From assembly GCA_963733095.1 (NCBI GenBank), contig CAVTBV010000002.1, forward strand, positions 78,664 through 142,663: a DNA stretch of 64,000 nt. The letters run 5' to 3'. Shown here piece after piece: positions 30,881-64,000 of this stretch. This DNA comes from Candidatus Bathyarchaeota archaeon (GTDB lineage Archaea; Thermoproteota; Bathyarchaeia; Bathyarchaeales; Bathycorpusculaceae). The notes beneath the pieces are model-generated. The model saw only the letters and a program-made list of their open reading frames with translations, was not told the origin of the DNA and made no database searches. The translations under genes and the position numbers were made by a program. Numbering within the stretch: position 1 is the stretch's first letter; the number at the start of each line of letters is the position of its first letter.

Positions 30881-31812
30881 AACTTGTCGTCGGCACAAGA
30901 GGCAGCAAACTCGCCCTCGCCCAAACCAACCGCACCCTAAACCAAATTAAACAAAAATGTCCCGACATAAATTTTGAGTTGAAAATCATCAAGACCACAG
31001 GCGACAAAGAACATGGCAAACCCCTCTTTTCGATAGATTGCAAGGGCATCTTTGAGAAGGAAATTGATCAGGAAGTTGTCAGCGGCAAAGTTGATTTGGC
31101 TGTACACAGCTTGAAAGACGTGCCTATTGTTGAACAGCAGACTGGTACGGTTTTGGCTTCAATTCCGAAGAGAGATTCGCCATGCGATGTTTTCATTTCT
31201 AAGGATAAAATTCACCTCAGCGCGCTGCCGAAAGGTGCAGTCGTTGGAACTGGTAGCCTGAGACGACTAGCCGAAATCAAATTCATTCGCCCAGATTTAG
31301 ATGTTGAACCCATCAGGGGAAATGTGGACACAAGAATCGGCAAAGTCAAAAAAGGAGAATTGGCAGGCATAATCATTGCGGAAGCCGGTTTAGAGAGAAT
31401 GGATCTAACAAGTGAAATCACTGAGCGCCTCCTACTTGACCAATTTCCATCCGCAGCTGGACAAGGGGCAATAGCAATCGTGGCAAAAGAAGGCAGCACC
31501 GCCGTCATAGACGTTTTACATTCAGTGGAGGACAAAGCTACCCGCGCCGAAATAACAGCAGAACGTCGTTTGGTGCTTGAATTGGAAGGTGGATGCCGCG
31601 TACCTATAGGCGCTGTCGGACAGGCAAAAGGTAACAACCTTTCGTTGTTTGGCTGCATTTTCTCGTTAACAGAGCAAAAGAAAATCAGTGCGTCCGCTAA
31701 AGGAACATTAGCCCAAGCCGATGAATTAGGCAAAAAAGTGGGCGAAGACCTAATCAAGATGGGTGCTAAAGACTTGGAGAAGGAATGGAGAGAAAAATAT
31801 GGTGTATGGTAA
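30877..31812 (+). CDS. hemC: Hydroxymethylbilane synthase
   Basis: GTRGSKLA, AVHSLKDVP, IRGNVDTR, LEGGC. Confidence 0.97.
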   Translation: MKLVVGTRGSKLALAQTNRTLNQIKQKCPDINFELKIIKTTGDKEHGKPLFSIDCKGIFEKEIDQEVVSGKVDLAVHSLKDVPIVEQQTGTVLASIPKRDSPCDVFISKDKIHLSALPKGAVVGTGSLRRLAEIKFIRPDLDVEPIRGNVDTRIGKVKKGELAGIIIAEAGLERMDLTSEITERLLLDQFPSAAGQGAIAIVAKEGSTAVIDVLHSVEDKATRAEITAERRLVLELEGGCRVPIGAVGQAKGNNLSLFGCIFSLTEQKKISASAKGTLAQADELGKKVGEDLIKMGAKDLEKEWREKYGVW

Positions 31813-32554
31813 AGTTTACCTTGTTGGTGCCGGTCCAGGCGACCCCCAACTGCTCACGATTAAAGCGGTTAAGGTGCTAAAAGAAGCAGATGTAGTTATC
31901 TACGATAGGCTCGTTGGAGAAGAAATACTCTGCTTAGCACCTGAAGGCGCCGAGATGATCTATGTTGGTAAGCGCACAGGTAAACATGAGGTACCCCAAG
32001 ACAAGATTACTGAGTTAATAGTTGAGAAAGCGCAGAGCGGCGGCAAGATTGTTCGACTCAAAGGTGGCGACCCGTTTATTTTTGGGAGAGGCGGTGAAGA
32101 AGCCGAAGCGTTGGTTGAGAAAGGCATCGCGTTTGAAGTTGTTCCTGGTGTGAGCTCATCTGTGGCAGCTCCAATGTACGCAGGAATACCCTTGACCCAC
32201 CGAGACTATGCAGCATCAGTCGCGATAATTACCGGTCACCGAGCAGGCGATGCAGAGAAACCCATCGATTGGGTAAGAATCGCTAATGCTGTCGACACTA
32301 TGGTCATTCTTATGGGCGTAGAATCCCTTGAAGGCATAGTCGGCAAGCTACTGGAAGGTGGTATAAGCGTAGACAAACCAGTCGCCATGGTCGAATCCGG
32401 AACCTACCCAAAACAGAGAGCCCTTATCAGTACTTTGGGCAAAATCATCAAAGACGCCAAAAGCAAACAAATCAAGCCACCATCCGTTATAGTTATCGGA
32501 GAAGTCGCAACTTTAGGCAGGAAACTCGCATGGTTCAAAAAACCCCTAACTTAG
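31799..32554 (+). CDS. cobA: Uroporphyrinogen-III C-methyltransferase
   Basis: GAGPGDP, YDRLV, RLKGGDP.IFGRGGEE, GIPLTHR. Confidence 0.96.
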   Translation: MVYGKVYLVGAGPGDPQLLTIKAVKVLKEADVVIYDRLVGEEILCLAPEGAEMIYVGKRTGKHEVPQDKITELIVEKAQSGGKIVRLKGGDPFIFGRGGEEAEALVEKGIAFEVVPGVSSSVAAPMYAGIPLTHRDYAASVAIITGHRAGDAEKPIDWVRIANAVDTMVILMGVESLEGIVGKLLEGGISVDKPVAMVESGTYPKQRALISTLGKIIKDAKSKQIKPPSVIVIGEVATLGRKLAWFKKPLT

Positions 32555-33354
32555 TCGGCAAAACCATAGCTATCACACGCCCTGCGGGACAAGCCGAAGA
32601 AGCAGGCGCAATCATCAAGCAGAAGGGCGGCATACCCTACTATATTCCCGCAATAGAAATCAAGGCTCTAAGCAACCCAGTTGCTCTAAAAAAGTTTATT
32701 CGGGAACTTCACGAGCGTCAAGTGGACTATGTCATTTTTATGAGTACCAATGGAGTTAAGTATCTTTTTAGTGCAGCTCAAAATTTTAACCTGCAAATGT
32801 TGCTCTATGAAGGTCTTAAATGTACGTTTGTAATCGCGGTCGGTCCAAAGACAGCTGAAGCCATGGAGGAATGCAATGTTCGCGTGGATATAGTTCCCGA
32901 AAAATATAGTTCTGAAGGCTTACTAAAGGCGTTGGAAGGCAAAGATTTGGCGGGCAAAAAAATCCGCATCCCTCGAACCAGCAATGCCACTCCCACCTTA
33001 ACCAATAAACTCAGGGAAATGGGTGCAGACGTAGAGGAAATCTACGTTTACGAGTCAGGGTTGCCAGTAGACCAAAAACTAAAAACAAAGTTCTATGAAG
33101 ACTTAACCAGCGGAAAGATTGACGCTATAGTTTTCGGCAGCGGCTTGAGTGCCAAGAACATTTTTAAGATGCTCACTGAAAAAGCTCCCATGGAAACTCT
33201 AAGAAATTTTGTAAACTCCAAAGTGACAACAGTGGCTATTGGTCCCACTACTGCCGAAGCTCTAACGGAAATGGATATAAAAGTTAACGTCGTCCCCAAG
33301 GACTACTTGTTCGAAGAAGCGTTAACTGCTTTAGAGGCGTTCTGGAAACACTAA
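32530..33354 (+). CDS. hemD: Uroporphyrinogen-III synthase
   Basis: ITRP, S.NGV, AVGPKTA, AIGPTTA. Confidence 0.93.
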   Translation: MVQKTPNLVGKTIAITRPAGQAEEAGAIIKQKGGIPYYIPAIEIKALSNPVALKKFIRELHERQVDYVIFMSTNGVKYLFSAAQNFNLQMLLYEGLKCTFVIAVGPKTAEAMEECNVRVDIVPEKYSSEGLLKALEGKDLAGKKIRIPRTSNATPTLTNKLREMGADVEEIYVYESGLPVDQKLKTKFYEDLTSGKIDAIVFGSGLSAKNIFKMLTEKAPMETLRNFVNSKVTTVAIGPTTAEALTEMDIKVNVVPKDYLFEEALTALEAFWKH

Positions 33355-33688: not shown

Positions 33689-34465
33689 TTAAAGAAAGTC
33701 TGGGCTAAATTGTGGTTCATTAGCAACCGAAGCAATAATCTGCTCGGCAAATTCCTCTTGTTCTTTTTCGCCGGTGACGGCAATCCAGCATGCGCCTTCT
33801 GCGCCGCAAACGCCGCCGGCAGCGATTAACTCCACCTCGGCGGCTGTTAGCACCCTTAACGCATCCAATTCAGTGAAGACTTCTCCTGGGACGGGCAACA
33901 AACGGTATCCGCCTGCACCTGGAGCATTTAACTTCTCGGCTAAGGCGTTCAAGTTACCGTCTATACGTTTCTCTAAACCTACCGGAATTATAAGTCTCAC
34001 CCGACGACCCACAACAGCGGGCAAAGCCAAACCTATCGTTCCGGCTTTGGGGTGGCCAATCAAAATAGCTGCTTGCCTGTGGGTTAAATCTAACGCGTTG
34101 GCTCCTTTCAAAATGACATCACCCTCCGTGAGGTTGTCAATTACGTCAGCGATTGTTTTTCCTTCTTGCCAAACACCATTAGTTATTACCAAATCCCCCG
34201 GAAACTTACTCTCATCCGTCAGTCTGCCTTCGGCAGTTACATTCTTATCTGGAGGAATGGTTATGCCGCGGAAGAAATGTTTTCTTGAGAAATCATTTGC
34301 TATTTTGTGGGTTTTTAGGATTTCTTCAGCTACATAACCGTTGGTGGTTCCCGCAATAATTACAAGTGTTCCATTTTTTAGTGCTTTGCGTATGGCTGGG
34401 TGATTTGCGATGGTTTTGGCGATTAAACGTTTACCTGTTTGAGGTGTGATCAGGAACTGTTTCAT
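33689..34465 (-). CDS. Conserved hypothetical alpha/beta protein
   Basis: 258-aa ORF with GTTN.YV.EE, KGANA, PVGLEK and AAGG..GAEG motifs; function not assignable. Confidence 0.75.
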
Positions 34466-34606
34466 ATGGCATCTCTTTGCTTCATTAATCGTTAAGTGTA
34501 ATAAATGTTTTAATCGTCAGCTTATCCATCATAAGGCCATAAAATTTTCCTAAGGGTCTGAATAGCACAGCTTTAAAAGCAAGCACGCCTATGAATGGGA
34601 GGTTTA

Positions 34607-34888
34607 ATGGTGAGTATTTTGGCTCAAAAAGTTCGTGGAAGAATAACTAATTACCGCACAGGACCCAAAGAACAAACATCAAACGAGTGCTTAATTGAAT
34701 TTGAAAATGTTGCATCTGCAGGCTCAGCAAGCAAACTAATTGGGCAAAAGGTTACTTGGAAAAACGGAAAAACAAAGCTTACTGGAAAAATCAGGGGCGC
34801 GCACGGCAAGAATGGAATGGTTCGAGCAAGGTTTAAGCGTGGAGTTCCTGGCCAAGCAATCGGTTCAGTTGTTGAACTGATAAGCTAA
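34607..34888 (+). CDS. rpl35ae: 50S ribosomal protein L35Ae
   Basis: NYR.G...Q, GKI...HG.NG.VRARF..G.PGQA.G. Confidence 0.95.
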   Translation: MVSILAQKVRGRITNYRTGPKEQTSNECLIEFENVASAGSASKLIGQKVTWKNGKTKLTGKIRGAHGKNGMVRARFKRGVPGQAIGSVVELIS

Positions 34889-34931
34889 TTATCTTCTAAA
34901 AATATTTATAATTTTTCAAAAAAAAACTGTT

Positions 34932-35102
34932 TTATAATTCGCCCACATCAGGACCTTCGTAGACGTATTCAATTATTTCGGTATTTCCGTCTTTAACAAT
35001 TACTTGGTAATCTGCTTCGCATATTGGACAGGCGACTATTTCGCCGTCTTTTAAGCCGTCTCGTTTGAAGGTGTTCCCGCATTCAGTACATTTAAGAATA
35101 AT
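34932..35102 (-). CDS. LysW-like zinc-ribbon protein, 56 aa (not in ORF track, no canonical start)
   Basis: IILKCTECGNTFKRDGLKDGEIVACPICEADYQVIVKDGNTEIIEYVYEGPDVGEL; GGAGG then ATT. Confidence 0.8.
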   Translation of the reverse strand: MILKCTECGNTFKRDGLKDGEIVACPICEADYQVIVKDGNTEIIEYVYEGPDVGEL

Positions 35103-35114
35103 AGCTTTAGCCTC

Positions 35115-35423
35115 CTACTCCATTTTGAGGTAGTTGTGGCTTCGGAGCCAGTCGGATTGGTTTTTGCGGTACCGCCAGAATATGTCCCCATGTGTGTCGG
35201 ATTGGAAATCCCATGGCGATACCAATACGATATCGCCTTCTCTGATCCAAACTCGCCTTTTCAGTTTGCCGCGGACTCGGCACATTCGTTCTTTCCCATC
35301 TTGGCATTTAACCGTGATTCTTTCGGCGCCAAGCATCTTAACCGCTACACCCAATACGTCGTTTGAGGAAGGTAAGACCATGCTATCGAGGCTACCCTCG
35401 TTTGTTATTTTTCGTTTACCCAT
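35115..35423 (-). CDS. eif1a: Translation initiation factor aIF-1A
   Basis: MLG..R..V.C.DG..R.CR..GKL..RVWIREGD.VLV.PWDFQ..GDI.WRY. Confidence 0.96.
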   Translation of the reverse strand: MGKRKITNEGSLDSMVLPSSNDVLGVAVKMLGAERITVKCQDGKERMCRVRGKLKRRVWIREGDIVLVSPWDFQSDTHGDIFWRYRKNQSDWLRSHNYLKME

Positions 35424-35910
35424 TTTTTACACCTTTGGCTTACGCCAATTTTATATCAGAATAGTTTTGAGAAAAAGCGGATAAGTGGTCTAACTCTTCC
35501 TCTAAATAATTCTAACTACATCAATAAGGAACGCAACAGGTATATTAGTTTAGCTTAGTTTGTAAGGTTTTTTTTCATGGTTTTTAGATATTTTCTAATA
35601 ATAATTTTTCTAATGACTTGTTTTGCAGAAAACGGCTCGGAAATTACTCCTTTTTTCAAAAACATTTCTTCATCATTCCCTTCTCTTTATGGTGGGAAGC
35701 TCTTTCACGTTGAAGATTTTTTATTCTTCTTAGAATAATCTGATTTAAACATGTGTGTTAAAAACGTGGACTTTTTGCTTATAAACAACCTGATGCGTTT
35801 GTGGAGTAATTTTAAATAAAAACCCGGAATATTGGGGATTTTCGTTTTCAAAAGATAATAAAAAATAAAAAAGAAAATTGTTAAAGATTTTATGATGCTT
35901 AGCTAAATGC

Positions 35911-36051
35911 TTAGTATCTTCGTGGTGGTCTACGTTTTGAGTAGCACTCTCGGCAGTAAACTGGCCTTGTACCGTCTGGCTTGAAAGGAACTTCACATTC
36001 TTTTCCGCAGTCAGCGCAAGTTGCCTTGTGCATCTCTTTGTTATTATACAT
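35911..36051 (-). CDS. CxxC-x17-CxxC protein, 46 aa (not in ORF track)
   Basis: MYNNKEMHKATCADCGKECEVPFKPDGTRPVYCRECYSKRRPPRRY; AGGAG SD. Confidence 0.92.
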   Translation of the reverse strand: MYNNKEMHKATCADCGKECEVPFKPDGTRPVYCRECYSKRRPPRRY

Positions 36052-36391
36052 TCGCTATTTCAACTCCTACTACTTTGGCTATGCAAAAGTCTCTTTCGCA
36101 CAGTACCATCTAACTATTCGTCGATGCTTATAAATTGAGTGCTTGTGCATTCCTGATTAACCATCTGTCCCCTAGTGAGCAACCAGTCTCAATGAGGTTT
36201 TCCACAATCATCAGATAACCCCTTTTACTCAATAGCCAAAGCTGAAAATGACCAACTAATTTTTATCGTCAACCTAATATAGTTAACATTATATTATTAA
36301 GTAAATATTCGGGGTAAATGAGAAAAAGTGTGAAATAGCATCTCTGCAGTTGCTTTTTCTCGTACTTTGACCATAATTTGAGAGGGGTAAT

Positions 36392-37048
36392 TTGAGACAG
36401 AAAAAATCAACATTAGGCGAACATCTTGCGCTTCTTTCGGTAAAATATAACATTTACCCAAACGAAGTTTTCCAAGCATTAATCTCAGCAAGGAACAATG
36501 AGAAAGCTGTCTGCGGCAACCTTACAGTGGAATACCGCGGCAAAGTAAAGGGTGAAACAATTTTCCTAATAACAAAAGACAGCAGCGTTGTTGCTCAGTT
36601 CCGTGTTGGTGAAGAGTTCCTCCTAAGAAAAGATAACCCCTTCGAGAGTTGGATGAGCACAGATAAGATTCGCAAGAAAATCGCTAAACAAAACACCGAA
36701 TCAATCTACACATCCATCCACGATTTGAGAGCAGGCATGAAACGAGTCAACTTGAAAGCCGAAGTCATAGAGATTCCTAAACCCGCCCAAGTTCACACAC
36801 AATTCGGCAACACAGTCATGGTAGTCAATGCGTTGGTTGGGGATGACACTGGAAAAACCAAACTCTGTCTCTGGGAAGGACAAATCGGCTGTATTGCTGT
36901 GGGAAACAACATCGAGCTGAAGAATGCACAGGTCTGTGTTTTTAGGGGCGAGAGGCAGCTGCGGCTAGGGAAGAACGGTGTTCTTAACGTGTTGTCAAAC
37001 TCTACTGATGATGCAAAGCAACAGCTGGCAACAGCTGCAGTTAGATAA
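36392..37048 (+). CDS. Unknown N-terminal domain plus SSB/RPA-like OB fold
   Basis: I.DLR.GM..VNL...V, VGDDTG...L.LW, I.L.NA....FRG..QL.LG..G. Confidence 0.82.
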   Translation: MRQKKSTLGEHLALLSVKYNIYPNEVFQALISARNNEKAVCGNLTVEYRGKVKGETIFLITKDSSVVAQFRVGEEFLLRKDNPFESWMSTDKIRKKIAKQNTESIYTSIHDLRAGMKRVNLKAEVIEIPKPAQVHTQFGNTVMVVNALVGDDTGKTKLCLWEGQIGCIAVGNNIELKNAQVCVFRGERQLRLGKNGVLNVLSNSTDDAKQQLATAAVR

Positions 37049-37092
37049 AAATATTTTTTTTTTAAAAAAAAGTAAAATAATTATTTTTTTAG

Positions 37093-37308
37093 TTATTTCC
37101 AGTTGGTTCTTCGTCTGGACCAAGCTTGTTCTTTGTTAGAATCAGAGCTTGACGCTTTATGTTCGGTACTTCCATGAGTACTGTGTTTGGCTAAGCATTC
37201 TCTACAGTAAACGGGTTTACCTGCTGTTGGTTTAAAGGGAACAGTTGCGGATTTGCCGCAGTCACTGCATTTAATTTCGGTTACATTTACATTTGATCTT
37301 TGAGACAT
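37093..37308 (-). CDS. CxxC-x17-CxxC protein
   Basis: CSDCGKSATVPFKPTAGKPVYCREC. Confidence 0.9.
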   Translation of the reverse strand: MSQRSNVNVTEIKCSDCGKSATVPFKPTAGKPVYCRECLAKHSTHGSTEHKASSSDSNKEQAWSRRRTNWK

Positions 37309-37396
37309 TAAATTACTCCATATTATGTGAAAATTGGGGAAAAAGTTCCTTATTTTTCGAATATTTAAGGGTGGAACGTTGACTTAAACGTTTCCA

Positions 37397-37609
37397 TCAC
37401 TTCAAACGCTGAATCAGGCTAATTGTCTTTGTTTTCACTGTTTTTAAATTGGTTTTTTTCTTCGATGCAGCGTTTCCCTTATCAAACTTATCTCTTTCGC
37501 GTAATCCATAAAAAGCCATCCGCACAGCTCCACTCTCACTCGCCTCAAAACGTATTGACAGCTTCATTAGGATTTCCATCTGCTCCTTACTCAATATAAC
37601 TTTTACCAC
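37397..37609 (-). pseudogene. Ribbon-helix-helix-like protein, probably frameshifted
   Basis: VKVILSKEQMEIL..SESGAVRMAF; removing one T from the T5 run near 37512 gives MDYAKEISLIRE. Confidence 0.45.
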
Positions 37610-37848
37610 ATATTTCCTAATTTTTTCATTATCCCTTAAACGCCCTCACGATGGTCTTAGATTATTCGTCGCATGGTCTAATTGCTGTGCAATTCGACTT
37701 TTCATTTTGGGCTGTATATTAGCTGGGTGTTGGTCGTGTGAGGGATAGAAAGAATGTCAAGCAAAACAATCATAAAACGGAGGAAAAACAAACCCGGCAA
37801 AAGAGCATGTTTTTGGCTCGGGTTTTTAAGGCAGCACATGCTAGATGA

Positions 37849-38304
37849 TTGTTGGGTACTATCTTGGAATCAAGCGAAGAACTTAATGCGTCAACTTTTC
37901 AGACCTACATGTACCTTGTGAAGGTTGGGAAGCCTGTGGGGCCCAGAGATGTTATGCGTGGAGCCAACTTGAGCAGCCCAAGCGTGGCATACAGAAACCT
38001 CCAGAAGCTCATAGACTTAGGCTTAGTGGTAAAAGACGAATACAACAATTATGTGGTCAAGGAAAAAGTAAGCAAGAAAGGCTACGTTTGGATTGGAAAA
38101 ACTCTCATGCCCAGCTTTGTCATCGTCGGCTTCATTTTTCTAGGAATCTTGATCGGTGAGATAGCTGTCTTGATTCCCCACTTGGTCCGAGGTGCTCCAA
38201 TTCAGGAGTCGTTTTGGTTCTGGATTCTAACAACCACCGTTGCCGCCTTGATTTTCTTGGTTGAAGCAATCCGATTCAGGATGAAACCTAAGCACTCAAC
38301 ATAG
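37849..38304 (+). CDS. Membrane-anchored wHTH regulator
   Basis: Y.YL...GKPVGPRDV.R...LSSPSVAY..L.KL followed by two TM helices. Confidence 0.85.
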   Translation: MLGTILESSEELNASTFQTYMYLVKVGKPVGPRDVMRGANLSSPSVAYRNLQKLIDLGLVVKDEYNNYVVKEKVSKKGYVWIGKTLMPSFVIVGFIFLGILIGEIAVLIPHLVRGAPIQESFWFWILTTTVAALIFLVEAIRFRMKPKHST

Positions 38305-38387
38305 AAAAAAACGTCTGCTTCAAGAAAAGATGCAAACTGTTAAAAGCCATTTTCAATGAATAATGACATGCCAAAGGAAGAGACGCC

Positions 38388-39614
38388 TTGAAGAATTCAT
38401 TGGTAGTTGTGTTTGCTGCAATTTTGTTTTCATCAATTGTTATTTCAGGAGTTTGTTCTGCACAGCAGGGTTCTGGTGATTGGCCGATGTTCCGCGGAAA
38501 CCTCTCCCATACAGGTGTAGGCTCGGGAAGCCCAGTGTTAAACGCTAGTTTGCTCTGGAACTTTAGCACGGGCGGCCAAATTTATTCGTCTCCATCAGTC
38601 GTGGACGGCGTAGTTTTCGTGGGCTCTTTAGATGGGAACATTTTTGCGTTAAAAGCGGACAGTGGGACACGACTATGGAATTACAGTACTGGCAGTCAAG
38701 TTTATTCTTGTCCCGCAGTCGTCGAAGGCGTTGTCTACGTTGGTTCGGTCGATGGGAAAGTTTACGCTCTAAGCGCTACGAGCGGTGACAAACTTTGGAG
38801 TTTAAACACGGGCGGCGAGGTTGATTCTTCACCCGCTATCTCAAACGGCGTTGTCTATGTGGGTTCATACGACAACAATGTTTATGCCTTAAACGCCAGT
38901 GACGGCGCAAAACTATGGGTTTTCAGTACCCTTGCTCCAATCTGGTCCTCTCCCGCCGTGGTTGCAGGAGCTCTTTACATAGGCTCAACAGATGGCTACA
39001 CTTATGCATTGGATGCCTCAAGCGGTGGCGAACTGTGGAATTTCACTAATGGCTACCCGACAGAGTCCTCACCAACAATCATAGGCGATCAGGTTTATAC
39101 TGCGTATGATAATGGAAGCGTTTACGCTTTAAACATACTTGACGGCACCCAAGTCTGGAGCTACGCAACGGGCAACATCATCAAATCTTCTCCTGCCGTT
39201 GTGGGCGGGGTCGTCTATATTGGTTCCTTGGATGACAACTTTTATGCATTAAACGCATCTGATGGGGCAAAACTTTGGAGTTTCACTACTGGCGGCACGG
39301 TTTATTCAGCTCCTTCAATCGTTGACGGCGTTGTCTATGTGGGTTCAGCGGATTCAAACATATATGCATTGAACGCGTCAAGCGGTTCTAAGCTTTGGAG
39401 CTACCCCACCGGCGGGTTTGTTGAATCGTCCCCTGTAGTCGTCAACGGAGTGGTCTACGTTGGCTCCTTGGACGGCAATATCTATGCGTTAACTAATAGT
39501 GCTCCGATAACCAGCGAGTTTCCAGTCTCTTTTTTTGCTGTAGCTATAGGAATTATTTTTTCAACAATAGTCGCTTTCATACTTGTAAAGAAAGGAAACA
39601 AAACTCGTTCTTAA
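38388..39614 (+). CDS. Secreted PQQ-like/BamB-repeat beta-propeller
   Basis: Signal peptide, DWPMFRG, eight 40-aa repeats SSP.V..G.VYVGS.D..YAL.A..G..W; SEFP + TM + KK. Confidence 0.92.
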   Translation: MKNSLVVVFAAILFSSIVISGVCSAQQGSGDWPMFRGNLSHTGVGSGSPVLNASLLWNFSTGGQIYSSPSVVDGVVFVGSLDGNIFALKADSGTRLWNYSTGSQVYSCPAVVEGVVYVGSVDGKVYALSATSGDKLWSLNTGGEVDSSPAISNGVVYVGSYDNNVYALNASDGAKLWVFSTLAPIWSSPAVVAGALYIGSTDGYTYALDASSGGELWNFTNGYPTESSPTIIGDQVYTAYDNGSVYALNILDGTQVWSYATGNIIKSSPAVVGGVVYIGSLDDNFYALNASDGAKLWSFTTGGTVYSAPSIVDGVVYVGSADSNIYALNASSGSKLWSYPTGGFVESSPVVVNGVVYVGSLDGNIYALTNSAPITSEFPVSFFAVAIGIIFSTIVAFILVKKGNKTRS

Positions 39615-39621
39615 TGCCAAT

Positions 39622-39658
39622 GTTCCAGTTTTGGAACGCTATGTTCCATGCGTAGAAC
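39622..39658. promoter_or_regulatory. Tandem palindromes GTTCCA-N4-T(G/A)GAAC
   Basis: GTTCCAgtttTGGAAC (39622-39637) and GTTCCAtgcgTAGAAC (39643-39658), 21 bp apart. Confidence 0.6.
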
Positions 39659-39698
39659 TAAGAGCTACTTCTTGCCTTTTAGATTGTAGGTGTGATGG

Positions 39699-40472
39699 AT
39701 GCAGAAAAACCAATTACCCGAGCCCACAAGGGGCAAAATCAAACTCGTTTTATTGGTAACCATAGTCACCGTCGCCGTCGGCATTTTCATGTACTACTTT
39801 ACCTTCACCTCTTACGGCTACAGTAACTGGACATTTGTCATAATGAATATCATTCTCTTCAGCGTCTTCTTCTTGCTCTCGGGCTTTAGAAAGAAACTCA
39901 ACCGCCTCCCAAACAGCGTCTATGTAGCCTTCATCGTGGCATTGTTCGCAGAAATGTATGGCATACCCCTAACCATGTACTTTTTCGCTGGGTTCTTCGG
40001 CTATAACCACATATTCAGCTTAGAGTTCCTTTTAACCCAAGTATTCGGGCAGCAACCCTTCTACATCGTCTACCACTACTGGGTCTTTCCCGCCTCAAAA
40101 ATCATAATCGGCGCAGGCTTACTTCTTGTCATATTTGGCTGGTACCAAATCTTCAAAGCCAAAGGCAAACTCGTAACTACAGGCCTCTACAAATATACAC
40201 GCAACCCACAATACATCGGGTTTCTGATGATAACAGGCGGCTTAAACGTCCAATGGCTAACAATCATCACCACGGCAATATGGCCTGTCCTGGCGCTTCT
40301 GTACTGGCGGCTGGCAAAAATTGAGGAGCGCGAAGCCTTAGCAAAATACGGAGAAGAATTCCTAAAATACAAAGACTCTACACCCCGTTTCATTCCCCGC
40401 CTAAGAAGACACCAAATCAAAGCAGCGCAAAATCTTCAAATTACTGTGGAGACAAAGCCTAACCCCTTATAG
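39699..40472 (+). CDS. ICMT/PEMT-family membrane methyltransferase
   Basis: AFIVALFAEMYG.PLT, LVTTGLY...RNPQY.G, EE..A..KYGEE. Confidence 0.9.
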   Translation: MQKNQLPEPTRGKIKLVLLVTIVTVAVGIFMYYFTFTSYGYSNWTFVIMNIILFSVFFLLSGFRKKLNRLPNSVYVAFIVALFAEMYGIPLTMYFFAGFFGYNHIFSLEFLLTQVFGQQPFYIVYHYWVFPASKIIIGAGLLLVIFGWYQIFKAKGKLVTTGLYKYTRNPQYIGFLMITGGLNVQWLTIITTAIWPVLALLYWRLAKIEEREALAKYGEEFLKYKDSTPRFIPRLRRHQIKAAQNLQITVETKPNPL

Positions 40473-40761
40473 CAACCTTAATTTCTTCCAAATCCTTTTT
40501 TATGGTTAGCGATTTTACAATTGTTTGTATCAATGTTCTTAATTGCACTAAAGTTAAAGCATCAAAAGAGCTCTGCTTAACTCAGGGGCGTTTTTCCAAT
40601 CAATTATTACAGTCGATTTTTTTAGGGGAAAACTCGCGGTTGCCGATGCTGCTTCAGCCCAAAAAATTTGGTTTCCCACTTTGTTTGTTTCGTTTTAGGA
40701 AGACAGTTTTTATATCTGTATGAAGTATTGGGTTGGATAAGAGAAGAGAGGATAGCGTTAA

Positions 40762-41418
40762 TTGACTCTTATAGTGGATGACGCGGGCAGCGGCGATTTG
40801 CTGTTCGGCGTTGTAGTCGGCGCCTACCATGAACCAACAGGCGAATTCAAATACGACTTAATCGATGTCCGATTCTATCAGGATATCTTTAAAGAGAAAG
40901 AGTACCTGCAGGAATCCAGTCGCGTCGTCTCCAAACTTGTCTCAAAATTTAACCTCTCACCTGAAGAAGAAATTCACATCTGCCAAGGCTGCATCTTCGA
41001 CGTTGCCGCAGAAGAACTCCAAAAAGTCTACGGCGAAGACCGCGTCAAACGCATTCGCGTAGTCGGAGAAACGCAACGGCTCGTAGAAATCGCCTACTTA
41101 GATGAAATTCGCAACTTAGGCTACGAACCACTGGAAGAGAGGGAAGAGAAACGGGGCAAGAGCTTTTTCCACATGATGCGGTGGCTAAAAGACAACCCGG
41201 AGATGCTGCGCTACGCCAAAACAGGTTGGCCGCGCCTAAAGAACTATCAGATGTTCAGGCCGTTCCATGCCCAACAAGCCTTCAATGCTGTCTGTAGCGA
41301 ATGCGGAACCGAATGTGAAGTTCCCTTCAAACCCAAAGCTGAAAAACCTGTCTACTGTCGCAAATGTTGGTCAAACCATAAACCTTCTCACAGAAAAGGA
41401 AAAGCAGTAAAACACTAA
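40762..41418 (+). CDS. RNase HII-like-fold protein with C-terminal CxxC-x17-CxxC domain
   Basis: IVDDAGSGD..FGVVVG resembles the DEAG.G motif; ends CSECG.ECEVPFKP...KPVYCRKC. Confidence 0.7.
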   Translation: MTLIVDDAGSGDLLFGVVVGAYHEPTGEFKYDLIDVRFYQDIFKEKEYLQESSRVVSKLVSKFNLSPEEEIHICQGCIFDVAAEELQKVYGEDRVKRIRVVGETQRLVEIAYLDEIRNLGYEPLEEREEKRGKSFFHMMRWLKDNPEMLRYAKTGWPRLKNYQMFRPFHAQQAFNAVCSECGTECEVPFKPKAEKPVYCRKCWSNHKPSHRKGKAVKH

Positions 41419-41434
41419 AACTTTGGTAACAAAC

Positions 41435-41767
41435 ATGAATGTATTTTTAGATTATAACTCAAATTGGTACGTACTCCTGTTCGCATTCTTAGCGGCGTGG
41501 GCAATTCTTTTCGCTGTCCGCCGCAAATGGGTAGCAAAACAGGAGATTAAACAACAAGTCTTCCTTGCTTTCGGCGGCATGTGTTCATTAGCACTTATGG
41601 AGTTCTTTGCAGTCTCCACTGGCCTTTGGAACTATACCCCGGGCAATTGGCCGGTGATTCTGTGGCCCACCTACTTTGCAGCCATACTCTTCGGGTACCA
41701 ACTTCTCCGTTCAATCGAAAGCTTATTCCCCCACAGACCCCACGCTGATTTAAGCTTGAAGACTTAA
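41435..41767 (+). CDS. Small 3-TM membrane protein
   Basis: Hydrophobic helices; E.FAV..GLW.Y motif. Confidence 0.7.
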   Translation: MNVFLDYNSNWYVLLFAFLAAWAILFAVRRKWVAKQEIKQQVFLAFGGMCSLALMEFFAVSTGLWNYTPGNWPVILWPTYFAAILFGYQLLRSIESLFPHRPHADLSLKT

Positions 41768-41807
41768 ATACCGACTTCACCACTTTTTTTCTAGTGGTCT
41801 TCTTAGT

Positions 41808-42323
41808 TTGACTTCCAACGGTAAACCAGTTTCCCACAGCGACGTTGTTTGGCTGGGTAAGCCCTGGATTGTTCCAGCCTCCATCATCCGAATCATCACC
41901 TTCTTTGTAGTCGCGGTTGTTTTTCTTTGGCTCGAACTCTTTTCTGGTGTGGCCTCCGACGATTTGTTAGGTTTACCTGTTTGGATATGGACTTTTCTTG
42001 TGATTGCAATAATTTGGCTTATCAGTATGCTTGAGCTTCTGATTTTTCGAGCCTCCCACACCTACATCCTGCGGCGGGACGGCTTAGAGATTAAACGCGG
42101 CATCCTCGGGCTGCACTCGTTTGTCGTTACACCCTCAGGCTTTGGCGACTTGCTGGTCTACCAGTCGGTTGGGGGCAGAATCTTTGGTTACGGTGACTTT
42201 ACGGTTAACTCGCAGGGTGAACGGGAAACTAAATTGCTCCTTGTTCGCCACCCCTTCCAAGTAGCCGACACCCTGCGCGATATTATGGGTAACCCCATCG
42301 TTCGCGTTGAGAGCCACATTTAG
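41808..42323 (+). CDS. bPH_2 (bacterial PH) domain membrane protein
   Basis: Two TM segments, then Y.L....L.I.RGI, V.QS..GRIFGYGD..V. Confidence 0.82.
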   Translation: MTSNGKPVSHSDVVWLGKPWIVPASIIRIITFFVVAVVFLWLELFSGVASDDLLGLPVWIWTFLVIAIIWLISMLELLIFRASHTYILRRDGLEIKRGILGLHSFVVTPSGFGDLLVYQSVGGRIFGYGDFTVNSQGERETKLLLVRHPFQVADTLRDIMGNPIVRVESHI

Positions 42324-43546: not shown

Positions 43547-44077
43547 ATGAATAAAGCCGATTTTCTCCTCTGGAGCCGCAAGTACGATAAGGCGTTTGGT
43601 TGGCAAGCGCAGCGGGAGCGGGAACTCGGCGCAAAATTCCGCAAGAACAAGGCTTTGACCTGCAAGGATTTGGCGTCGATTGTTGAATGGAAATTTAAAG
43701 ATGACACTGAGCGGCAAGTGCGCAGTTTAGCGTTGGTGGCTCGAAATGACGAAGCAACCGTCAATAGGCTCACAAGCCAAGCCCTAAGCATACCTGGCAG
43801 CGAAGACGGTTACCGCATGAACTGTCTAACATTGCTTGAAGGCGTAAGCCCCATTCTTGCCAGCATCATTCTTTCATTCTTTGACCCCAAAGTCTACTGC
43901 ATCCTCGACGCCCACACCTGGAAAGCGCTCCTCGGCAACGTTCCCCCAAACATGCAAACAACGCAGAACTACCTCAAACTCCTTGCCGTCATCAGAAAAA
44001 CCGCTGCCAAACAAAACCTCGACGTACGAGTCATCGACAAAGCATTCTACAAAAAAGGCGTCGACCAAACCAGCTAA
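43547..44077 (+). CDS. HhH DNA-glycosylase-like protein
   Basis: I.EWKF, L..L.GV.P.LAS.IL...DP..Y.ILD, VR.IDKA. Confidence 0.6.
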   Translation: MNKADFLLWSRKYDKAFGWQAQRERELGAKFRKNKALTCKDLASIVEWKFKDDTERQVRSLALVARNDEATVNRLTSQALSIPGSEDGYRMNCLTLLEGVSPILASIILSFFDPKVYCILDAHTWKALLGNVPPNMQTTQNYLKLLAVIRKTAAKQNLDVRVIDKAFYKKGVDQTS

Positions 44078-49327: not shown

Positions 49328-49644
49328 GCGGTGGACCACTGCGGTTTGACGCCCAGACTCCGTCTGAAGCCTCCAAACCCTACACTCTTACCCGCACCCC
49401 CTTGAGCGCATAACGTCCAAACTTAGGTTGCTCTCTCCCGAGCCTAGCCGGGTTCGCCTGCTAAACGACGAAGTAACTTCCCTACGGAAGCCACCCATCG
49501 ACCGCCAGCCCCAAAGGACGGATAGTCACTGGTTCGGAAATGGAAGTCCAAGCGGCCTTTGACGCCTCATCCGCAGATGTCAGCCCGTCATGTAGAGGAT
49601 TTACGGTACAATGGACCCCTAACCCACCGCTTAAGATCCACCGC
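49328..49644 (-). ncRNA. ffs: Archaeal SRP (7S) RNA
   Basis: Helix 8 AACCCGGCUAGGCUC-GGGA-GAGAGCAACC; ends pair (GCGGUGGAUC/GGUCCACCGC); about 317 nt; TTTATA upstream. Confidence 0.93.
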
Positions 49645-63923: not shown

Positions 63924-63998
63924 GGGTCCGTAGCTCAGTCAGGCTAGAGCATCGGACTCTTAATCCGAGGGTCGCGGGTTCAACTCCCGTCGGACCCG
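63924..63998 (+). tRNA. tRNA-Lys(CTT), intronless
   Basis: GGGTCCG/CGGACCC acceptor stem, TCGGA-CTCTTAA-TCCGA anticodon arm, TTCAA T-loop; CC of CCA at window edge. Confidence 0.97.
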
Positions 63999-64000
63999 CC

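Follow-up and report, generated by a model that had tools for sequence, protein, structure and literature searches.

In a 64,000-nucleotide window (contig C2, positions 78664-142663; coordinates without a contig name are positions in this window) from the 2,835,923-base, 95% complete genome of a soil archaeon of the Bathyarchaeia, we analyzed an island of small genes and lean, by a modest degree of confidence, toward the view that most of them belong to an RNA-remodelling module, so far undescribed, that is accessory to the translation apparatus. The set would comprise a second aIF-1A (aIF1A-2) with a coupled zinc ribbon (ZR56), two stand-alone CxxC-x17-CxxC proteins (Cx46 and Cx71), an OB-fold protein (OB218) and a protein in which a third CxxC-x17-CxxC domain follows a predicted RNase-H-like fold (Fus218); in other families aIF1A-2 and OB218 form a predicted operon led by a DEAD-box RNA helicase, which often has the zinc domain at its C-terminus. 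These six genes and the ribosomal protein gene L35Ae had been named in a preliminary description of this stretch, and all seven are present according to profiles, reading frames and fold. We established the identities of the proteins, the paralogy of aIF1A-2, the conserved adjacency of the genes, the domain fusions and, at the level of models, the folds; from these we infer that RNA is the substrate and the ribosome the site of action, and any physical complex is likewise an inference. All the parts belong to known families and, as far as our searches of the literature reach, the association itself was not found described.

The aIF1A-2 gene (35115-35423, minus strand) matched PF01176 at 79.1 bits and TIGR00523 at 112.7 bits, above the curated cut-offs of 30.2 and 102.9 bits. 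A profile search of the genome's contigs gave two aIF-1A copies, so that the extra paralog suggested in the preliminary description is real. The canonical copy lies on another contig (C7:16553-16744) and is followed by genes for a RIO1-type kinase and a KH protein. Compared with this canonical aIF-1A/RIO1/KH (Dim2-like) arrangement, aIF1A-2 is likewise full-length, and it is 60% identical to the canonical copy, but it does not stand beside RIO1 and KH genes; ZR56 is its next neighbour, with Cx genes and OB218 nearby. Two separate clades (support 96/84), one of module-linked and one of RIO1-linked copies, emerged from a tree built with 39 aIF-1A sequences of the order after two frameshifted copies had been excluded. 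The island-type copies clustered with second copies from other families. Because the alignment has 101 columns and the root is unknown, we left the duplication undated. aIF1A-2 is a genuine additional paralog of long standing, and it is widespread in Bathyarchaeia. The aIF1A-2 copies of two genus genomes (G007:C32, L123; G021:C9, L127) read as frameshifted and may be assembly errors or decaying genes.

The core aIF-1A motifs are kept in aIF1A-2, and the tryptophan W59 in the motif RRVWIREGD was invariant across 15 paralog sequences. Its counterpart in human eIF1A, W69, is described in the accessible part of PMC6122471 as a ribosome-contact residue conserved in aIF1A. Two genomes from different families (G157, family f1; G098, family f35) each carry one RIO1/KH-linked copy plus one OB218-linked copy. 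By contrast, the 96% complete genome G140 shows a single aIF-1A, located within a helicase-aIF1A-OB218 run (G140:C32:24701-27886, L286), and no RIO1-linked copy; therefore, the OB218-linked type can probably serve as an initiation factor. Two aIF-1A genes in one archaeon are likewise known from Haloferax volcanii (aIF1A-1 and aIF1A-2), in which the two paralogs could not both be deleted (PMC8576121, citing Gabel et al. 2013), and the portion of that article available to us treats the pair as a haloarchaeal contrast to other archaea. The same portion describes no helicase, OB or zinc partners for the H. volcanii pair, in difference to the genes considered here.

Directly after the stop codon of aIF1A-2 opens the frame of ZR56 (56 amino acids; 34932-35102 including the stop codon, minus strand), which begins 12 nt past that stop. 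This frame has no ATG, GTG or TTG start; an ATT stands at the position of the ATG of its relatives, with a GGAGG 8 nt upstream that overlaps the aIF1A-2 stop. The start looks like a near-cognate codon or a termination-reinitiation event, and ZR56 is predicted to be translationally coupled to aIF1A-2. Using ZR56 as a tblastn query, we obtained 43 matches in the collected loci, most of them immediately downstream of aIF1A-2. A read-through fusion of the two proteins across the TAG stop was considered, as they share a reading frame here, and rejected, as the ribbon of several relatives lies in a different frame or starts with an ATG of its own. The preliminary description had called ZR56 a LysW-like ribbon. 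The ribbon is there, with its coupled frame, but membership in the LysW carriers did not hold: the scores were below the curated cut-offs for TIGR01206 (18.3 vs 53.2 bits), NF041070 (26.7 vs 75 bits) and PF21344 (25.2 vs 27 bits). In LysW and ArgW the C-terminal Glu carries the substrate, whereas ZR56 ends in GEL rather than in a terminal Glu, and its relatives extend beyond the GEL. An ortholog in locus L253 reached 30.2 bits with PF21344, and two better LysW-like genes (44.9 and 44.5 bits) are found elsewhere in the genome. Judged by score and C-terminus, ZR56 is LysW-like in fold only.

The zinc domain that recurs through the island is carried by Cx46 (46 amino acids, zf_Tbcl_2; 35911-36051, minus strand), by Cx71 (71 amino acids, with a basic tail; 37093-37308, minus strand) and by the C-terminus of Fus218. 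In all three, four Cys are spaced CxxC-x17-CxxC, and the scores of 72.1, 59.2 and 57 bits for PF23477 (cut-off 27) and of 72.4, 61.2 and 59.4 bits for TIGR04272 (cut-off 36) were above the curated values. These are the only three PF23477 matches in the genome and they all lie in the island, within 5.5 kb; by our own arithmetic, the probability that three points placed at random in 2.84 Mb share a 5.5-kb stretch is about 1e-5. Cx46 orthologs in 11 loci from several families were 56-98% identical (82-98% in eight, 56-65% in three), and from this conservation we take Cx46 to be under strong constraint.

Among 151 Bathyarchaeia genomes sampled across the class, 110 had PF23477 matches, 1-8 in each genome, mostly in small open reading frames (ORFs) of 42 to about 150 amino acids among the matches listed. 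At E<=0.001, a search for the CxxC-x17-CxxC family gave 3357 representative proteins. Relatives with several copies of the domain (e.g., P0013, P0019) have RGG-like linkers, which are typical of RNA binders. When Cx46 was used to look for longer homologs, the matches listed were all tandem repeats of the domain, with no fusion among them; the helicase fusion reported below surfaced through synteny. Two Methanosarcina mazei proteins, A00184 and A01980, belong to the same TIGR04272/PF23477 family and are likewise small, stand-alone and present in several copies per genome. These M. mazei homologs bind zinc, as determined by inductively coupled plasma mass spectrometry, and the authors suggest a role in transcription (PMC12704099). 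In the accessible part of that source zinc binding is the single property demonstrated, in agreement with the earlier statement that the function of CxxC-x17-CxxC proteins is unresolved, and no gene neighbourhood is described there for the two proteins.

We then compared the island with related loci. A sample of 80 loci around Fus218 orthologs, 74-94% identical, was drawn from records titled as Bathyarchaeota or Bathyarchaeia metagenome-assembled genomes, including Bathy-6 and Bathycorpusculum. A Cx46 ortholog of at least 75% identity was present in 52 of the 80 loci, OB218 in 42, L35Ae in 16, aIF1A-2 in 15 and Cx71 (at least 75% identity) in 15. A second travelling group, away from Fus218, was observed in other genomes of the genus (G003, G019, G024) and consists of L35Ae, aIF1A-2 with ZR56 and a Cx71-like gene in varying order and strand; two others (G013, G016) retain L35Ae and the Cx71-like gene and not aIF1A-2. 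According to our own tally of the genus tables, a PF23477 gene lies within 2 kb of 14 of the 16 aIF1A-2 copies, compared with none of the 22 canonical copies; the two exceptions are on a 9.3-kb contig (G020) and 0.55 kb from a contig end (G021).

Beyond the genus, we took the best OB218-like gene of 30 genomes of the class with 1.5 kb on either side. A CxxC-x17-CxxC gene was found within this distance in 18 of the 30 loci and an aIF-1A gene in nine. In six loci (L200, L203, L206, L210, L217 and L218) OB218 follows aIF-1A on one strand after a gap of 9-30 nt, a spacing like that of an operon. The Cx-OB218 pair occurs in families f1, f6, f26, f28, f30, f31 and f35 (coordinates matched by eye). 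The neighbourhood is conserved among the relatives, as had been asked of it in the preliminary description, and its core across the class. This gene linkage across Bathyarchaeia is not due to chance.

The gene directly upstream of aIF-1A in genomes G109 (f35) and G029 (f6) encodes a DEAD-box helicase, 72% identical between the two, which heads a helicase-aIF1A-OB218 run in both. The G109 protein is composed of a DEAD domain (PF00270, 174.3 bits), a Helicase_C domain (PF00271, 105.4 bits) and a C-terminal zinc domain (PF23477, 50.6 bits). Helicase orthologs were present in 94 of the 151 Bathyarchaeia genomes. Among 30 helicase loci, each covering 1.5 kb on both sides, the zinc domain was fused to the helicase in eight and a stand-alone Cx gene adjoined it in four; OB218 was present in six, aIF-1A in four and L35Ae in one. 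DEAD-box proteins are RNA-dependent ATPases that act on RNA. This partnership therefore tips the reading of the set toward RNA.

An alternative to any shared function is that small, highly expressed housekeeping genes stand together by descent or chance, with the zinc domain as a promiscuous add-on. The island genes lie on both strands with spacers of 200-500 bp, so that a single operon is excluded except for aIF1A-2 with ZR56; the linkage of L35Ae is confined to this family, many of the Cx genes across the class stand amid unrelated metabolic genes, and aIF1A-2 and PF23477 differ in their phyletic profiles. Such a reading would nevertheless leave aside that the same pairs recur in varied order and orientation across the seven families named above, that aIF-1A and OB218 show operon spacings of 9-30 nt, that all the PF23477 genes of this genome are clustered in the island and that the zinc domain was fused independently to two partners, the helicase and the Fus218 N-domain. 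We consider the absence of a functional unit quite unlikely.

Several of these observations, together with others, weigh against the accessory module that we favour. For the most part, the genes of the window are transcription units of their own, distributed over both strands, and the genomes compared are relatives, so that the locus counts lack phylogenetic independence. Ten of the 30 OB218 loci, two of them short, had neither a Cx nor an aIF-1A gene, and 16 of the 30 helicase loci had no linked partner within 1.5 kb; the helicase of the window's own genome is unlinked (C15:15986-17095). When 102 ORFs that neighbour Cx genes at 30 other loci of the class were scanned with Pfam, no partner was dominant (Ssb-like_OB twice, Helicase_C twice). 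Three genomes (G025, G026, G038) have two aIF-1A genes and no PF23477 match, and in two (G039, G040) PF23477 is present with one aIF-1A. The closest solved relatives of OB218 bind single-stranded DNA (ssDNA), and the sources label its gene replication factor A1. A complex prediction of aIF1A-2, Cx46 and zinc with OB218 as the partner, run without controls, gave a score of 0.00 and a mark of 0.32, which speaks neither for nor against binding.

OB218 (218 amino acids; 36392-37048, plus strand) consists of an N-domain of about 100 amino acids followed by an OB fold of the Sulfolobus SSB type, with about 35-36.3 bits for PF21473 (curated cut-off 24). Its sequence matched the structure 1o7i with an E-value of 1.3e-11. 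The AlphaFold2 (AF2) model had a mean predicted local distance difference test (pLDDT) value of 85 and matched 1o7i in Foldseek (E 7e-9, template modelling (TM) score 0.78 on the target); the OB domain superposed on 1o7i with a root-mean-square deviation of 1.6 Å over 99 columns at 30% identity. The OB domain also matched human SSB1 and, in part, AROD-OB-1 of Pyrococcus Rpa1. Compared with the single-OB proteins Sulfolobus SSB and human SSB1, OB218 shares the OB domain and adds the N-domain. Its best NCBIfam SSB equivalog, PRK06461, scored 75.4 against a cut-off of 176, which places OB218 outside the equivalog. It is the weakest of the four PF21473 genes of the genome (36.3 vs 64.7, 53.1 and 49.2 bits).

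The full-length OB218 architecture is common in Bathyarchaeia and often multi-copy. Among the 150 rows listed from a phylum sample of 201 genomes, no match outside Bathyarchaeia extended to the N-domain, and only the OB half was covered; a homolog search with residues 1-105 returned close relatives only and is uninformative on range. In some families the OB218 family reaches 5-7 matches per genome (e.g., G119, G106, G089). Several class-level matches contain one in-frame TGA, TAG or TAA, which pseudogenes, over-extended matches or recoding could explain.

Fus218 (218 amino acids; 40762-41418, plus strand) combines an N-domain (residues 1-165) with the C-terminal CxxC-x17-CxxC domain (residues 172-207). 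Its AF2 model had a pLDDT of 89.3. With the N-domain, Foldseek returned retroviral integrase cores (E about 1e-3) and RNase HIII (query TM 0.50); its matches spanned E 6.5e-4 to 3e-3, probability 0.96-1.0 and TM 0.26-0.50, modest scores that come from Foldseek only, and an Atlas lead pointed to RNase HII with a weak score of 0.75. The N-domain had no Pfam family, and a profile search with the Fus218 alignment gave no PDB match. The residues D6, D7, E69 and E109 were conserved across 19 sequences, as judged from the sequence alignment. At these modest scores, the models suggest that the N-domain is RNase-H-like at the fold level, in line with the fusion that had been proposed from the DNA.

The N-domain was present in 91 of the 151 class genomes. 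Of 30 loci with the N-domain, 14, all of them from family f1, have it joined to the zinc domain; in two, both from genus g70, it stood beside a divergent stand-alone Cx gene, and in the other 14 it was alone. Within the genus, Fus218 is often 12-32 kb away from the other genes or on another contig, and it is tied to the gene set mainly via the shared zinc domain. The window's own genome encodes a paralog of the N-domain at G000:C6:14222-14683 (L158 1459-2019); it is 31% identical, lacks the zinc domain and reads DASGWSD where Fus218 has DDAGSGD. Many class genomes have such a pair of N-domain paralogs, which are side by side in G166.

The structural likenesses of OB218 and Fus218 would also fit an RPA-like module for ssDNA, in which OB218 and a zinc finger work with an aIF1A-2 recruited from translation, and Fus218 is an RNase-HII-like nuclease on RNA-DNA hybrids. 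Euryarchaeal RPA is made of several OB folds and a zinc finger, and OB218 matches Sulfolobus SSB, human SSB1 and partly Pyrococcus Rpa1 besides being named replication factor A1. The predicted RNase-H-like fold of the Fus218 N-domain and its DDAGxGD start, which we take to resemble the RNase HII motif, point the same way. However, in several families the partner in the predicted operon is an RNA enzyme, the DEAD-box helicase, and aIF1A-2 keeps the aIF-1A core, its type being the sole aIF-1A found in G140. Moreover, three better-scoring PF21473 genes are available in the genome for a DNA role, and the Pfam scans of neighbours gave no replication or repair genes that recur beside the set. We regard a module acting on ssDNA as quite unlikely.

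If the set does act on RNA, as an accessory module of the translation apparatus, its parts could cooperate as follows. The DEAD-box helicase, encoded on contig C15 in this genome, would open RNA structure and OB218 would hold the single strand. The CxxC-x17-CxxC domain would be a shared adaptor for docking to RNA or to the ribosome, either free, on the helicase or on the RNase-H-fold protein, and aIF1A-2 would bring this activity to bear on the small subunit at its A site. Such a module could take two forms. In one of them, it would assist initiation on structured mRNAs by means of the helicase, with the cold-shock idea of the preliminary description as its stress-specific form. In the other, it would take part in late small-subunit maturation, by analogy with eIF1AD, the eukaryotic eIF1A paralog of late pre-40S particles. 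eIF1AD keeps the ribosome-binding surface (accessible part of PMC6122471) and works in small-subunit maturation in contact with RIO1 (accessible part of PMC8112863, citing Ameismeier 2020). The likeness is that of a paralog of an A-site factor, and we claim no orthology; as a difference, the copy adjoining RIO1 here is the canonical one and not the paralog.

A bolder and doubtful version is that aIF1A-2, ZR56, OB218, the Cx proteins and the helicase form a dedicated A-site machine on the 30S subunit, which serves either alternative initiation or an eIF1AD-like late 30S maturation and quality control. As its first option, helicase-assisted alternative initiation would foreshadow, in archaea, the way in which eIF4A-type helicases cooperate with eIF1A. 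As its second option, Fus218 would be a zinc-finger-guided RNase in late 30S maturation and quality control.

The bacterial cold-shock set consists of CsdA (a DEAD-box helicase), CspA (an OB-fold RNA chaperone) and IF1; in bacteria and some archaea, cold induces DEAD-box helicases and IF1. Proteins of these three kinds also occur together in other Bathyarchaeia families, where the helicase, an aIF-1A paralog and an OB-fold single-strand binder are neighbours or share a predicted operon. A cold-induced, low-temperature module made of a helicase, an OB RNA chaperone and an IF1 homologue would be a special case of the accessory module. No CspA-type cold-shock domain (CSD; PF00313) was found in the 95% complete genome. 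In difference to the bacterial set, however, OB218 is of the SSB type and not a CSD. The genome has three stand-alone TRAM proteins, and the TRAM family acts as an archaeal cold-shock RNA chaperone and Csp substitute according to the available part of PMC5572242. Furthermore, the helicase is widespread and single-copy-like (94 of 151 genomes), as expected for a housekeeping enzyme.

Contigs from four RNA libraries touch aIF1A-2, Cx46, OB218, Cx71 and Fus218, mostly with 85-95% likeness. Sequences of relatives therefore occur in RNA libraries, which informs on presence only and not on level, strand, operon structure or habitat. Parts without such cover carry no information. All of the sequencing runs matched in small shares, 0.05-0.07 of the words. 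Overall, a module dedicated to the cold is a reasonable idea in view of the bacterial parallel, but we regard it as unlikely. We rate the accessory module as a variant of the RNA helicase and chaperone sets that serve the ribosome.

L35Ae (eL33; 34595-34888, plus strand) scored 55.7 bits with PF01247 (curated cut-off 27) and 87.4 bits with NF003326 (cut-off 85) and is the single match in the genome. It is an ordinary housekeeping ribosomal protein, not specialised, whose association with the set is restricted to this family. Of the 19 genus genomes in which L35Ae was found, 13 have a PF23477 gene no more than about 2.5 kb from it (tallied from match tables); it is also near aIF1A-2 in genus g21 (L253), and the other families sampled showed no such linkage. 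No L35Ae was found in six of 24 genus genomes (G004-G006, G009, G017, G018), three of which are 92-97% complete, nor in five of 16 sampled genomes of other families, and appears dispensable or patchy in the order.

Between Cx71 and Fus218, Pfam identified a helix-turn-helix protein with membrane helices (HTH-TM; 37849-38304), a PQQ beta-propeller with a signal-like stretch at its N-terminus and a hydrophobic one at its C-terminus (38388-39614) and an ICMT/PEMT-like methyltransferase (39699-40472), all on the plus strand. All three genes of the stretch 37849-40472 were present in only one of the 80 Fus218 loci (L045), and the ICMT-like gene alone in another (L042). In the closest loci that have both Cx71 and Fus218, the starts of the two genes are about 0.5 kb apart; therefore, this block is an insertion, lineage-specific and unrelated to the module. 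A 70-amino-acid ORF (37397-37609, minus strand) that belongs to no family was also considered as a module gene and rejected: its mean blastn cover corresponded to 1-4 of the 80 loci, tblastn matched it in two (L050, L094), and we left it out as unsupported.

On the flanks of the island, u258, TM114, TM171 and u176 (33689-34465, minus strand; 41423-42323 and 43547-44077, plus strand) are conserved in most relatives, and a Pfam scan gave no family above the cut-off for any of them. Two ORFs at 31763-33354 (plus strand) resemble by eye uroporphyrinogen-III C-methyltransferase and uroporphyrinogen-III synthase and are syntenic in many relatives. Scans of the window with Rfam and, for tRNAs, with ARAGORN found no RNA gene in the island; the sole matches in the window were an archaeal signal recognition particle RNA (49329-49643, minus strand; 152 bits) and a tRNA-Lys(CTT) (63924-64000, plus strand; ARAGORN).

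The links to a DEAD-box helicase, an SSB-type OB protein and a second aIF-1A give the CxxC-x17-CxxC proteins their first concrete, testable context. Discussion of a second aIF-1A has so far concerned haloarchaea; in Bathyarchaeia such a paralog is old, widespread and accompanied by partners of its own. Were the A-site machine to prove true, CxxC-x17-CxxC would be a domain that docks to the ribosome or to rRNA, which would give a function to thousands of archaeal and candidate phyla radiation (CPR) members of the family. If the partners of aIF1A-2 act on the ribosome, they would represent a new accessory layer of archaeal translation in a lineage of TACK, the archaea whose initiation comes nearest to that of eukaryotes.

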